Below are positions 20,832 to 25,730 of a stretch of 64,000 nt of DNA, in pieces (the first letter of the stretch is position 1; each line of letters begins with the position of its first letter). Both the position numbers and the translations under genes were made by a program. Under the pieces are notes generated by a model. That model saw only the letters and a program-made list of their open reading frames with translations. It did not search any database and was not told the DNA's origin. This DNA comes from Escherichia phage ECO07P2: sequence record OP172785; one strand, written 5' to 3'.

Positions 20832-21515
20832 TTATCGTTTTGTTGGAAGGGATAGAGGATCGCAATCTTCCTCTGACGGAGCATCTTCAAGACCCATAGC
20901 ATATCGTAAAGCATACTTCATCATCAGGATGTCTTTCGCACAGTCATGAATAGAATCATGTGCAACGAATCCATCTAAAGTTCCCTTTGGAAGAGGACAC
21001 GTGGTCATATCACGAACAAGAAGAAGTGCTTCAATTCTGGTACGAATATCACGCTGATTCCAGAATTTACATGGTTCTAACTTAAATGTGTCAAGTTCAT
21101 TCTCAGAAACGCCATTAAGACGTTGAATATCGCGAATGAGATCGACTAAAATTGGAAAATCAAACGACATTCCACGGCACCAGCCTTGAGATTTCCAAGG
21201 ATCAATATTATGTGCATTGATGTAATCATTAAATTTTGCAATACCATCGATAGTGCTTACATCTTCATCTGATGGTGCAATATTTTTTCGAGCTTCAGGA
21301 GACTGATTTTTCCACCATTCAATAGTGCTTTTAGTAAAAAGACGATGTCCTTTTTGGCTTTTTAAATCAAATTTGATTTTAATGCCGCGCGAAACTAATT
21401 CATCAAATGTTTCAACTACTTCTGGATTAGGGTCAAAGGCAATAACAGCCAAATCAATAACAGCTGCCTTTTCACCGCTTCCCATTGTTTCAAAATCTAT
21501 AATAAAATCAAACAT
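20832..21515 (-). CDS. dexA: DexA exonuclease A (3'-5' exonuclease)
   Basis: 227-aa ORF MFDFIIDFETMGSGEKAAVIDLAVIAF: DEDD-type exonuclease motif (D-F-E-T); size matches T4 DexA. Confidence 0.85.
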   Translation of the reverse strand: MFDFIIDFETMGSGEKAAVIDLAVIAFDPNPEVVETFDELVSRGIKIKFDLKSQKGHRLFTKSTIEWWKNQSPEARKNIAPSDEDVSTIDGIAKFNDYINAHNIDPWKSQGWCRGMSFDFPILVDLIRDIQRLNGVSENELDTFKLEPCKFWNQRDIRTRIEALLLVRDMTTCPLPKGTLDGFVAHDSIHDCAKDILMMKYALRYAMGLEDAPSEEDCDPLSLPTKR

Positions 21516-21757
21516 TAAATTTTCCTCGCTAAATCGCGAATTTGACCTACAGTATAATCTTGGATATAAACTTTATTAATGGGCTCATCAATAAATTTTG
21601 CCATAGATTCAATATCTTTTTGTATCTCTTCAAGACTGTATACTATCTTTGAAGCTTTTTCGCGAATAGTAACATTATCAGGTCCTGAATTTTCTTGAAT
21701 GACAGCTTTAACACTTGCCATAAGAGATTTAAACTGGTGCAAACTTAATTCAATCAT
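21515..21757 (-). CDS. hypothetical protein (80 aa)
   Basis: Track ORF; weakly similar to adjacent 81-aa ORF (LEEI..D...DY.LG.I). Confidence 0.5.
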   Translation of the reverse strand: MIELSLHQFKSLMASVKAVIQENSGPDNVTIREKASKIVYSLEEIQKDIESMAKFIDEPINKVYIQDYTVGQIRDLARKI

Positions 21758-21995
21758 TAATAACCGCCTTATAAAGATGGCTAATTTCGCCTAAAACATA
21801 ATCACTGATTGTAACAGTTTTCACTTCACCGCAAAAGAATTCTAACGCAATCAAATCTCGTTCAATTTCTTCCAATTGAAGCATTAACTTGCCTGATTCA
21901 ATTTTCACGTTTTTGCGATTTTTACTATAAGCTATTTCATAAATTTCGCTTACTTTATCTTGGAGCAGATAAAACTGATCTTTAGTTATTTCCAC
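21750..21995 (-). CDS. hypothetical protein (81 aa)
   Basis: Track ORF; possible tandem paralog of previous. Confidence 0.5.
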   Translation of the reverse strand: MEITKDQFYLLQDKVSEIYEIAYSKNRKNVKIESGKLMLQLEEIERDLIALEFFCGEVKTVTISDYVLGEISHLYKAVIND

Positions 21996-22016: not shown

Positions 22017-23336
22017 TCATACGTAAAACACATCATAACGACCACGTGTTACACCAACATAAAGAAGCTGCTGAGCTAGTTCAGCATCTGCATAATGAAT
22101 ACAAGGCGTATAGATAAAAGCACGGTCTACAGACATGCCCTGAGCTTTGTGGAATGTTGATGCAGGAAGTGCTTTCACTTTACTAAACTGCGATTTAGCA
22201 TCCCAAAAATCACTCCATGGAGCTTTTCCACCTTTATTCCAATTTTTATAAGTTTCTGCCGTTTTACCTAAAAATAAGTTAAACTTATACAGCTCTTCAT
22301 CAGATGAAATTATTTTAATCTTTTCACGATAATATTCATCATCGCCGTAAGTTTCTACTGTTAAATCCCAATGACGAATTAGATATTCTCCAGGAACACC
22401 ACGAGCTTTAACAAATGTTGATGTATACTCTGCTTCTATAATACGAACTAATTGTCCGTTATTAAAAATAATTTCTGACACAGGCTTTCCATCAATTTTA
22501 TATGTTTTAATTAATGGTTCCTGCATTACAATAATTTCACCAACGATAAAATCTTTATCAGTTTCAAAAATCTTTTTGCGAATAATGCTATTTAACTTGT
22601 CAACAGATTTATTCGTAAATGCCATTACGCGATTTTCAAACAAATCATCTAGTGATTTTACGATTGAAAAATAATTTACCATAAAATCGCGTAAAGCGGT
22701 ATCACCAGTAAATCCACGTACTCCATGCCCGTCAACAATTTTATCATAAATCCACTTACCATTACGAACATCAGTAGCTACATCAATAATAGGAGCATTA
22801 CTGCGTTTAACTTCAGTGAGTTCACACTGATAAAAATCTTTATGTGTAAAGAATGGACTGATATAAGCAGTGTTTTCTCCTGGGTCAACAGGTCTAATTT
22901 GCTTATTATCACCTATTCCAATTATAGTACACCATGGTGGAATAGTTGAAAGCAAAATTTTAAATAGCTTTCTATCATACATTGACACTTCGTCGCAGAT
23001 TAATACTCTGCATTTAGCCAAATCCGGTACTTCTTTTTGCTCAAAAAGAACGTTTTCTTCATATGTTACTGGGTTAATTTTGAGAATACTGTGAATAGTA
23101 CTCGCTTCTTTCCCTGACAGTTTTGAAAGAATCTTTTTAGCTGCATGAGTAGGAGCTGCTAAAATAATGCCAGTTTCGCCAGTAGATATTAAGGCTTCAA
23201 TGATGAACTTAGTAAGAGTAGTCTTACCAGTACCAGCAGGTCCATTAATAGTTACATGATGTTTCTTTTCTTTGATAGCCCTCATAACGATGTTAAAGGC
23301 ATTTTTCTGGCCTTCAGTCAAATCATCAAATGTCAT
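22017..23336 (-). CDS. dda: Dda DNA helicase (SF1B)
   Basis: 439-aa ORF; Walker A GPAGTGKT, helicase motifs; N-terminus MTFDDLTEGQKNAFNIVMRAIKEKKHHVTINGPAGTGKTT as T4 Dda. Confidence 0.95.
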   Translation of the reverse strand: MTFDDLTEGQKNAFNIVMRAIKEKKHHVTINGPAGTGKTTLTKFIIEALISTGETGIILAAPTHAAKKILSKLSGKEASTIHSILKINPVTYEENVLFEQKEVPDLAKCRVLICDEVSMYDRKLFKILLSTIPPWCTIIGIGDNKQIRPVDPGENTAYISPFFTHKDFYQCELTEVKRSNAPIIDVATDVRNGKWIYDKIVDGHGVRGFTGDTALRDFMVNYFSIVKSLDDLFENRVMAFTNKSVDKLNSIIRKKIFETDKDFIVGEIIVMQEPLIKTYKIDGKPVSEIIFNNGQLVRIIEAEYTSTFVKARGVPGEYLIRHWDLTVETYGDDEYYREKIKIISSDEELYKFNLFLGKTAETYKNWNKGGKAPWSDFWDAKSQFSKVKALPASTFHKAQGMSVDRAFIYTPCIHYADAELAQQLLYVGVTRGRYDVFYV

Positions 23337-23644
23337 CGTAAATTCCCTGCAATTGGTATACTAACAATACGCCCAGTATCTAAAATTCGCCGATATAATC
23401 TTTGCGTGTCTACATCAGGCTTAACGTGTTTAACTTCTATTTTATTAAACCAAAACTTGCGTGGAGTCTCAACTAATCTCGGAATTCCCATACCTAAAGC
23501 TAGTCGATACTGCTCTTTAAGAGTTGTAAAAACTTTATCAGCAATCTCCCTTTCAAAAAATACAGCAGGACGATGTTCATCAAGCGGAACAGGCACCGCA
23601 AATCCATCTTTATCTCTATACACTATCGCATATACATAAAACAT
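23333..23644 (-). CDS. hypothetical protein (dda.1 position, 103 aa)
   Basis: Track ORF, 4-nt overlap with dda. Confidence 0.55.
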   Translation of the reverse strand: MFYVYAIVYRDKDGFAVPVPLDEHRPAVFFEREIADKVFTTLKEQYRLALGMGIPRLVETPRKFWFNKIEVKHVKPDVDTQRLYRRILDTGRIVSIPIAGNLR

Positions 23645-23645
23645 A

Positions 23646-24392
23646 TTATCCTCGGATAAGTTTAAAAATTGAACAATTTAGCGGGTATCCTCTTTTCAGT
23701 TTAAGTTTATCAATAAAAGACAAGTTTTGATACCGCTCTACACCTTGAATAATTTTATCACACATATCATATTGCATTTCTGCTTCTGACAACTTTTTCA
23801 CGGTTTTCCAATCCGAGCCTTTAAGAAGAACGTTCAATTTAACAACTTCAGCGCCTTCTGCTATACGAGAACCATCAATACGAGCTTTGAGTGCTATAAT
23901 CGTTAGCTTAACGTCAGAAGTTTGTTTTGATTTAGAAAGCTGAGAAATGTGCTCAATTCGGTTTTCACGTTTTTTCTGTATAGCTTTAATTTGATTATAA
24001 GTCTTTTTGATTTTAGCCCATTTCTTTTCATCTAAATTTAGTTTATGAACTTTTTTCGCAGATGAACGACCAATTCGCAAAGCAAATAAATCACGCTTTT
24101 CAATCAACTCTTCTAAAGTATAATCAGAACGAAATGTATTATACTTTTTCTTTACTGCAATAACATTCCCTTTAATGTATCCAACGTTATTATCAAAACG
24201 TTCTAATGATAATTTCTCTCCTTCAATACGATTATCAAAAGGTTCTCCTGAGTAAGCGCAAACTTTCTGATCTAAAATGTTCTTAATGTAATTGAAGTCT
24301 AAGTTAAAATCTTTAGAACGTCTTTTGGCAGATGCCTGAGTGTGCTCTAGACGACGTGTAATTTTACGAATTTGATTATTAGACAGTTTCAT
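23646..24392 (-). CDS. hypothetical protein at srd position with degenerate HNH-like motif (248 aa)
   Basis: CAYSGEPF...LSLERFDNNVGYIKGNVIAV resembles HNH-type zinc-finger motif with His replaced; position between dda and modA corresponds to T4 srd. Confidence 0.6.
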   Translation of the reverse strand: MKLSNNQIRKITRRLEHTQASAKRRSKDFNLDFNYIKNILDQKVCAYSGEPFDNRIEGEKLSLERFDNNVGYIKGNVIAVKKKYNTFRSDYTLEELIEKRDLFALRIGRSSAKKVHKLNLDEKKWAKIKKTYNQIKAIQKKRENRIEHISQLSKSKQTSDVKLTIIALKARIDGSRIAEGAEVVKLNVLLKGSDWKTVKKLSEAEMQYDMCDKIIQGVERYQNLSFIDKLKLKRGYPLNCSIFKLIRG

Positions 24393-24418
24393 ATTTTTCT
24401 CACGGACGGTTAACTACT

Positions 24419-24451
24419 TATACTATAACATTTTTACTTCAGCTTGTAAAC
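24419..24451 (-). promoter_or_regulatory. early promoter GTTTAC-18-TATAGT
   Basis: Minus strand GTTTACAAGCTGAAGTAAAAATGTTATAGTATAAG. Confidence 0.5.
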
Positions 24452-24507
24452 AACTTTATGAAAAATGCTTTAAAACTTTCATGGTATAATGAATCTAAGT
24501 CCTTCCA

Positions 24508-25110
24508 TTATAGATTAAATCCTTCAAAATCAAGAGTATAGATAGTGTATGTTGAATACTTTTTATACTCGTATCTATCAGCAATTCTAAATACACTTCC
24601 AGCTGGTATCATTACTTCTTGTTCATCTGAAACTAATTCCATATTACGATAACGGTGGCTATCTGGAAACTTAAAACTTGGACTATATTCTTTACAACGT
24701 AAAGCTTTTATAGCATACTCCTGGAAATTAAACACCATAGGAGCTTTGAATTCAAAAATAACTTGCGTGTTGTATTCTAATCCAGAAGCAAAATGTAGAG
24801 CTATATTTTTATCATATGAAGCTGATACTACTTTATCAAATGTAATAATATCAATTCCTTGATTTAACACCTGCTTAGTCTCAACTGGAACACCTCTCCA
24901 AAGAGGTTTATCGTTTGGAACCAAACGAGATTTGATTATTTCATTTAACCAAGAATGATCGTCTGGCTTATTAGTAATACAATGAATTAAAAGTTCAATT
25001 TCGGATAAATTAAATCCTTCAGAAAGTAATTCTTCACGAATAGAAGCACGCACAGATGCATCCATTGATTTGATTTTAAAATCTTTTAATTGCATTGCTG
25101 AATATTTCAT
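24508..25110 (-). CDS. modA: ModA ADP-ribosyltransferase
   Basis: 200-aa ORF; R (LWRG), S-x-S (SAS) and E-x-E (EQEVMIP) motifs of R-S-E ADP-ribosyltransferases; size matches T4 ModA. Confidence 0.85.
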   Translation of the reverse strand: MKYSAMQLKDFKIKSMDASVRASIREELLSEGFNLSEIELLIHCITNKPDDHSWLNEIIKSRLVPNDKPLWRGVPVETKQVLNQGIDIITFDKVVSASYDKNIALHFASGLEYNTQVIFEFKAPMVFNFQEYAIKALRCKEYSPSFKFPDSHRYRNMELVSDEQEVMIPAGSVFRIADRYEYKKYSTYTIYTLDFEGFNL

Positions 25111-25730
25111 TCAACTACCTCAATATCATACACTTTAAATGTTCCAAATGAATCGTGTAATTTTTCTTTTGAAATAGAAGTTATTTTATACTTTCCAATT
25201 GGAATCATCCATTCTTGTTCACGTACAATCATCATTAAGTTATCAGTACGTTCTGAATCTAATCCATCAGTATCTTCATATGTATACTTAAACTCAGTAT
25301 TAGGAGAAGAAAGTATAATATCGCTGATATGGTCAGAGTAATTAAAAGCTTTATCAGTTTTTAAGCGAAGTATTGTGTCAGTGAAATATTCGGCATAAGA
25401 AAAAGAACACGCTGTATGCAAACTAGTAGTAAATGAATCTACTCTGTTCGTTGAAAACACTTCTCCGACTTGTAAATCTTTAATGAGTTCTTTTGTCGAT
25501 TTTGATATACCACGATATAGCTGATAAGGCGATTTAGTTAAATGCTTTTTAACGATTTTATTCAACTGCTGATGAAGAGCTTCATTCTTTTTGGCTTCCA
25601 TACATTGCCAAAGAACTGACTGTTCAAAGTCAGTAAATTTTTCACAGACCTTTTTATACATATCATATTGAAAATCGACACTTTCAGCTTTTATAGATAA
25701 CTGTTCAACATCTGCAAGATTAATAATCAT
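25107..25730 (-). CDS. modB: ModB ADP-ribosyltransferase
   Basis: 207-aa ORF; YRG, S-T-S-like and EQEWMIP motifs; tandem with modA. Confidence 0.85.
   Translation of the reverse strand: MIINLADVEQLSIKAESVDFQYDMYKKVCEKFTDFEQSVLWQCMEAKKNEALHQQLNKIVKKHLTKSPYQLYRGISKSTKELIKDLQVGEVFSTNRVDSFTTSLHTACSFSYAEYFTDTILRLKTDKAFNYSDHISDIILSSPNTEFKYTYEDTDGLDSERTDNLMMIVREQEWMIPIGKYKITSISKEKLHDSFGTFKVYDIEVVE

Follow-up and report, generated by a model that had tools for sequence, protein, structure and literature searches.

Gene content and organization of the srd locus

The stretch of DNA analysed here (the window, 64 kb in length) represents a T4-type phage genome, whose region 23000–25200 shares 99% identity with Escherichia phage ECO07P1 and 98–99% with many other Tequatrovirus genomes. 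The open reading frame at 23646..24392 on the minus strand begins with ATG and encodes 248 residues followed by a stop codon. The product is identical to T4 Srd (NP_049634.1) at 244 of 248 positions (98%), with none of the four substitutions at a conserved motif position, and it matches the PHROG family phrog_1400 ('Srd anti-sigma factor') over residues 4–248 with an E-value of 7.7e-108. The flanking genes are also arranged as in T4, with dda.1, dda and dexA downstream and modA and modB upstream. This gene is therefore orthologous to srd of phage T4, as the initial annotation had proposed from its position. The srd gene itself is already well known and, since the two proteins are nearly identical, published data on T4 Srd should apply directly to the window protein.

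The gene order mod-srd-dda.1-dda-dexA is kept in Tequatrovirus, Kanagawavirus, Krischvirus and Jiaodavirus (the phages compared include T4, PEi26, MIZ5 and KEN22), and in Lazarusvirus (phage Lazarus) srd lies near dda with a few small open reading frames between the two. Across these five Straboviridae genera, the Srd proteins encoded at the conserved locus share 22–98% identity, with position and orientation unchanged. Matches to Srd are present in 1251 phage records. No second copy or paralog of the N-terminal domain of Srd (see below) is found elsewhere in the 64-kb window.

The stop codon of srd (23646–23648) is separated by a single base from the start of dda.1 (23644), and dda.1 overlaps the start of dda by four bases (23333–23336, minus strand). 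The three genes are therefore tightly packed, which suggests that they may be translationally coupled. Directly upstream of srd lies a promoter-like site (24422..24450, minus strand) consisting of TTTACA, a 17-nt spacer and TATAGT with TG before the −10 hexamer, which scored 10 of 12 matches in a consensus scan. The number of promoter-like sites in this region is not above that expected from shuffled sequence, and the site is suggestive only. Its −35 element (GTTTACA) is similar to that of T4 early promoters and its −10 element is extended; the site resembles the T4 early promoter consensus, GTTTAC...TATAAT. Transcripts of srd and dda.1 are among the most abundant NAD-capped T4 RNAs (2026 preprint, 10.1101/2024.04.04.588121).

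Two pairs of paralogs lie close to srd. The genes modA and modB (24508–25110 and 25107–25730, minus strand) are adjacent and overlapping, and their products share 26% identity over 179 residues (E-value 3e-14), a relationship already known for T4. Between dexA and dda, the small genes dexA.1 and dexA.2 (21515–21757 and 21750–21995, minus strand; 80 and 81 residues) are tandem paralogs with 25% identity and a pairwise E-value of 3e-8. The T4 RefSeq record (NC_000866, 9143–9388) names dexA.2 'dextranase', which looks like a misannotation of this 81-residue protein taken from the gene name.

The N-terminal finger and its relation to PacI

The full-length AlphaFold model of Srd, computed from an alignment of 17 orthologs, has a pLDDT of 88.8 and consists of two helices, two strands (residues 61–65 and 77–81), a helix at about residues 82–90, three long helices and a short tail. 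When residues 1–112 were modelled alone on an alignment of 65 sequences, the pLDDT was 91.8. The N-terminal domain (residues 1–110; 24063..24392, minus strand) is predicted to form a His-Me (beta-beta-alpha-metal) finger of the PacI type after the first two helices. Its core motif (residues 45–88; 24129..24260, minus strand) can be written as C45-AYSGE ... E64-R65 ... G71-Y72 ... G75-N76-V77 ... N85 ... R88. It includes the two segments quoted in the initial annotation, C45-A-Y-S48-G49 and L61-SLERFDNNVGYIKGNV77, which are indeed present in the 248-residue product and are encoded at about 24129–24260.

Several lines of evidence place this domain among the His-Me fingers. Residues 10–98 match PHROG families labelled 'endonuclease' (E-value 1.8e-18), 'HNH endonuclease' (5.4e-17) and endonuclease VII (1.2e-7). 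A Foldseek search with the full model returned the restriction enzyme PacI (3ldy_A) with a probability of 0.99 over 98 columns, most of the other matches being to coiled coils. A search that made no use of structure, with a profile of 34 diverse domain sequences against 177,635 PDB sequences, also ranked PacI first, at an E-value of 0.056, and hhalign aligned the domain profile with the PacI segment at 75% probability in the same register as the HMMER alignment. PacI is thus the closest solved structure to the Srd finger. Two antiparallel strands followed by a helix, with structural likeness to solved members, are seen as expected of a His-Me finger, and the likeness to a beta-beta-alpha nuclease finger far exceeds what chance would give. 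We therefore assign residues 1–110 with high confidence to the His-Me (HNH) fingers of the PacI branch.

The initial annotation had noted a resemblance to fingers of the HNH/AP2 type and had named profile and structure searches for an HNH-like fold as the appropriate check. The HNH-like part of this proposal is borne out by the PHROG, AlphaFold, Foldseek and profile results, whereas the AP2/HNH_3 part is not, as no HNH, HNH_3 or AP2 family of Pfam matches Srd even at E-values up to 10. NCBIfam, PADLOC and a whole-protein sequence search of the PDB likewise gave no useful matches, and a word-indexed homolog search with the N-terminal domain alone as query returned only four fragments. Some genome annotations label Srd orthologs "HNH endonuclease"; in the literature searched, no paper links Srd with HNH nucleases or with PacI, and its assignment to the PacI branch, with the active site regarded as intact, appears to be new there.

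In the HMMER and hhalign alignments, the Srd residues C45, E64-R65, G71-Y72, N76, N85 and R88 correspond to C63, D92-R93, G99-Y100, N104, N113 and K116 of PacI, respectively. The canonical histidine position of HNH fingers, the last residue of the first strand, is occupied by R65, and the catalytic histidine is absent. Because R65 is the residue that ends this strand, the initial reading of Arg-Phe in place of the catalytic Asp-His was shifted by one residue, and the pair that stands in place of Asp-His is Glu64-Arg65. The literature on PacI lists its catalytic residues as H, DR, the Tyr following DR, and CxxCN (PMC11529989), and gives its metal ligands as Asp and Asn and its general base as Tyr (PMC4081073, PMC5714182). 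PacI is described there as a known exception among HNH nucleases, which works without the histidine and uses instead a tyrosine of the loop between the strands (PMC5714182, PMC4081073). Since PacI is an active enzyme with Asp-Arg, a loop Tyr and Asn, and the equivalents of all of these are present in Srd, the Srd residues make up a set of the PacI type and not a damaged version of the HNH one. Judging from the alignment together with the secondary structure, E64, R65, Y72, N76 and N85 would converge on one site.

The two proteins share the acidic-Arg pair that ends strand 1, the loop Gly-Tyr, the Asn before strand 2, the helix Asn-x-x-Lys/Arg and the helices ahead of the finger (PacI: PDB 3LDY/3M7K, group 20 of the His-Me classification of Jablonska et al. 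2017). The relationship is remote, with 16% identity and with Glu in Srd for the Asp of PacI. At the zinc site of PacI (CxxC...CxxC), which stabilises that enzyme and is required for its activity, Srd has C45, S48, K81 and Y84, such that three of the four cysteines are replaced; the Asn of the CxxCN motif is kept as N85. The active-site His42 of PacI aligns with K27, which is variable in Srd-type proteins and is I, K or L in the family as a whole, so that this histidine has no conserved counterpart. Srd, unlike PacI, also contains an additional helical half, which is about 140 residues long. As a restriction enzyme, PacI cleaves double-stranded DNA in a Mg-dependent manner and works as a homodimer, whereas the sole known activity of Srd is stimulation of RNase E. 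In contrast to the canonical HNH nucleases (T4 endonuclease VII, Hpy99I, Cas9 HNH and I-HmuI), which have a His general base and mostly zinc sites, Srd has Arg at the histidine position and a loop Tyr.

Conservation of the finger and the wider family

The core motif is invariant in the 17 orthologs. Among 53 non-redundant Srd-type proteins, which are 22–74% identical to the window protein, twelve positions are 100% conserved: C45, Y47, E64, R65, G71, Y72, G75, N76, V77, V80, N85 and R88. The C-terminal half is conserved far less. Residues 111–222 (23727..24062, minus strand) comprise a linker followed by three long helices in the AlphaFold model (residues 122–153, 159–191 and 193–222); no position in this region is conserved in at least 85% of the 53 proteins, and its structural neighbours are coiled coils or helical bundles only. 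From the model, we presume that it acts as a coiled-coil or helical-bundle tether. The tail that follows (residues 223–248, NLSFIDKLKLKRGYPLNCSIFKLIRG; 23649..23726, minus strand) is specific to Srd-type proteins, being found in about 68 Srd-type representatives and absent from the stand-alone and tandem members of the family described below. Its best conserved positions among Srd-type proteins are G235 (98%), L238 (88%) and P237 (83%), and G235 and L238 are the only positions within the C-terminal 140 residues that reach at least 85%. Since the finger residues are 100% kept while the C-terminal half is barely conserved, selection is concentrated on the presumed active site.

This pattern does not fit the view that the motif is degenerate and the protein a relic: E64, R65, Y72, N76 and N85 are kept in all 53 Srd-type proteins, and Arg is the family-wide state. 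In genuine relics, of which the Smad MH1 domain is one, the active site is relaxed, the opposite of the Srd pattern (PMC5714182). With all of its active-site residues conserved, Srd thus looks unlike a decayed relic.

The finger belongs to a much larger family. An exhaustive HMMER search recovered 1398 clusters (50% identity; E-value at most 0.001), nearly all of them through residues 10–100, and a profile search of clusters at 90% found 1172, none with a Pfam domain on record. This PacI-like domain family of more than 1000 clusters has no Pfam model. The pattern [DE]-R-Y-N-N occurs in 321 of 330 domain copies; the exceptions are fragments, tandem second copies and a single protein that has His for the Tyr in each of its two copies. 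Arg occupies the histidine position in 325 copies and His in none. For the remaining residues, the counts out of 330 are 329 for N76, 327 for N85, 327 for Tyr72 (with His in two) and 327 for Cys45. Not one of the 330 copies has all four zinc-site cysteines, so that loss of the zinc site is a family-wide property and is not specific to Srd. The protein with the His replacements is a metagenomic sequence of 437 residues (P0138), which has 'GH' for 'GY' in both copies (residues 138–214 and 333–407); a swap from Tyr to His at position 72 would be expected for a general-base position. Cys45 (codon 24258–24260) is the lone near-invariant cysteine and lies beside the presumed active site; no role readily suggests itself for it.

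Three architectures are observed: the Srd type, stand-alone proteins of 100–200 residues (e.g. gp085 of Pseudomonas phage PN09 and gp23 of vB_PpS_SYP), and tandem proteins with two to four copies of the domain. The tandem members include P0051 (852 residues, four copies) and P0078, P0082, P0086, P0094, P0095 and others (two copies each). By analogy with the PacI homodimer, they could be single-chain pseudo-dimers. The stand-alone and tandem proteins occur in phages and metagenomes under the label 'HNH endonuclease / anti-sigma factor' (phrog_3322, phrog_3118 and phrog_4592). They share with Srd the domain of about 90 residues and its invariant C, [DE]-R, G-Y, N and N, but are without the helical half and the C-terminal tail. 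A Pfam scan of ten long multi-copy members detected no informative fused domains. The many tail "matches" in one protein of 1496 residues (P0068) proved to be an artefact of low-complexity repeats and were rejected. In the literature searched, no experimental study of stand-alone or tandem members was found.

Srd, RNase E and the proposed role of the finger

The link to host mRNA turnover that the initial annotation attached to this position has a basis in the literature. According to three reports (PMC7430671, PMC4980113 and PMC13232886), all of which cite Qi et al. 2015 (Genetics 201:977), Srd speeds the decay of host mRNA through RNase E: it stimulates the enzyme and reportedly associates with the N-terminal half, where catalysis takes place. 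There is no report of Srd acting as a nuclease.

The reading that we consider the probable one is that Srd is built of two modules, a PacI-type finger and a helical tether for RNase E, with the finger functional and with RNase E cleavage increased as the outcome. The reported binding to the N-terminal, catalytic part of RNase E would be due to the helical half and the tail, which would thereby tether Srd to the enzyme. The finger, to judge from its conservation, would be a metal-dependent site that is still functional and makes contact with phosphodiester backbones, and tether and finger together would raise cleavage of host mRNA by RNase E. As in PacI, the metal would be held by the acidic E64, next to R65, and by N85 of the helix, while Y72 of the loop would serve as general base. 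The same explanation takes srd to be an early, vertically inherited host-takeover gene.

The chances that the finger still catalyses, and does not only hold its substrate, are about even. That catalysis would be required for the stimulation of RNase E is less likely. The corresponding full proposal, in which Srd is an active nuclease using PacI-type tyrosine chemistry without a zinc site and needs this activity to stimulate RNase E, is put forward as a speculative one.

The explanation to be weighed most seriously against a functional finger is that the domain only binds, whether to RNA, DNA or RNase E, and that Srd activates RNase E by protein contact in the manner of RapZ. A non-cleaving nucleic-acid binder or regulator, as the initial annotation envisaged, is possible. 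RapZ is an E. coli adaptor that binds the N-terminal domain of RNase E, and a similar mode, protein contact with the catalytic half, has been proposed (PMC7430671); the two folds are unrelated, however, and the targets differ, being a single small RNA for RapZ and a broad range of host mRNAs for Srd. RNase E-dependent effects and association with the N-terminal half are all that the published data on Srd describe (PMC7430671, PMC13232886), the zinc-binding cysteines are lost, the equivalent of PacI His42 (K27) is not conserved, and His-Me fingers that have turned into binders exist, for example Smad MH1 and the nuclease-like domain of Enpp (PMC5714182). The known inert His-Me fingers, however, are without the catalytic residues (PMC5714182), whereas in Srd the acidic ligand, the Arg, the Tyr and both Asn are 100% kept even among proteins with only 22% identity, although the remainder of the sequence diverges. 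The loss of the zinc site, moreover, is common to the whole family. An inert adaptor is accordingly a credible explanation to which we give a minority weight.

A further possibility, which we consider improbable, is that Srd itself nicks host transcripts and that RNase E is drawn by its 5' sensor to the resulting 5'-monophosphate ends. In favour of this, Srd has an intact active site of the PacI type, 5'-monophosphate ends are the usual product polarity of HNH-type nucleases, and T4 offers a precedent in PNK, which makes 5'-P ends to stimulate host RNases and is named alongside Srd (PMC9409239). PacI and the structural neighbours, however, are DNA enzymes. In addition, Qi et al. in 2015 reportedly observed that the effect of Srd disappears in cells defective in RNase E, and one 5'-triphosphate RNA is said to still need RppH for Srd-stimulated decay. 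Loss of the effect without RNase E, taken together with this dependence on RppH, argues against degradation of RNA by Srd alone.

That the gene is a free-standing homing endonuclease, or a recent remnant of one, at the srd locus is very unlikely. In its favour, related PHROG families carry the label endonuclease or HNH endonuclease, and the PacI-like HNH genes of lactococcal phages, which occur sporadically, are taken to be homing enzymes (PMC12724721); srd, by contrast, keeps its place and orientation between mod and dda.1-dda in five Straboviridae genera, occurs in 1251 phage records and carries a conserved Srd-specific C-terminal half. The conserved gene order, together with the single copy of the domain in the window, argues against a mobile element. 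The distribution of srd is not of the sporadic, mobile kind, and the homing-endonuclease origin suggested in the initial annotation is not supported.

An anti-sigma factor or a decoy of sigma-70 and sigma-S, as the database name implies, is scarcely credible: the T4 RefSeq record notes a 'postulated decoy of sigma factors RpoD and RpoS' and BLASTP aligns Srd 89–118 with region 4.2 of E. coli RpoD (569–598; 13 of 30 residues identical, pairwise E-value 0.008), but no sigma-70 domain of Pfam is detected even at E-values up to 10, the hhalign profile comparison with E. coli RpoD gives a probability of 0.3%, the 'T-L-E-E-L' stretch within the match recurs generally in the PacI-like family, in the helix after the finger, and experiments have pointed to RNase E as the partner and not to RNA polymerase. 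The similarity between this segment (24039–24128) and RpoD probably gave rise to the name 'similarity with rpoD'. By these sequence comparisons, support for the "anti-sigma" label is negligible.

The conclusion that an Arg in place of His means a dead enzyme is a tempting misreading, and it would equally affect more than 1000 related phage clusters. Placing Srd in the PacI branch with an intact site opens a mutational route to the mechanism by which it acts on RNase E, a question since 2015. If Srd does prove to be an active nuclease that needs its catalysis to stimulate RNase E, the shut-off of host mRNA by T4 would involve a phage nuclease physically coupled to the main RNA-decay enzyme of the host, and the family of more than 1000 clusters would represent a widespread, unrecognised class of zinc-less PacI-like phage nucleases.
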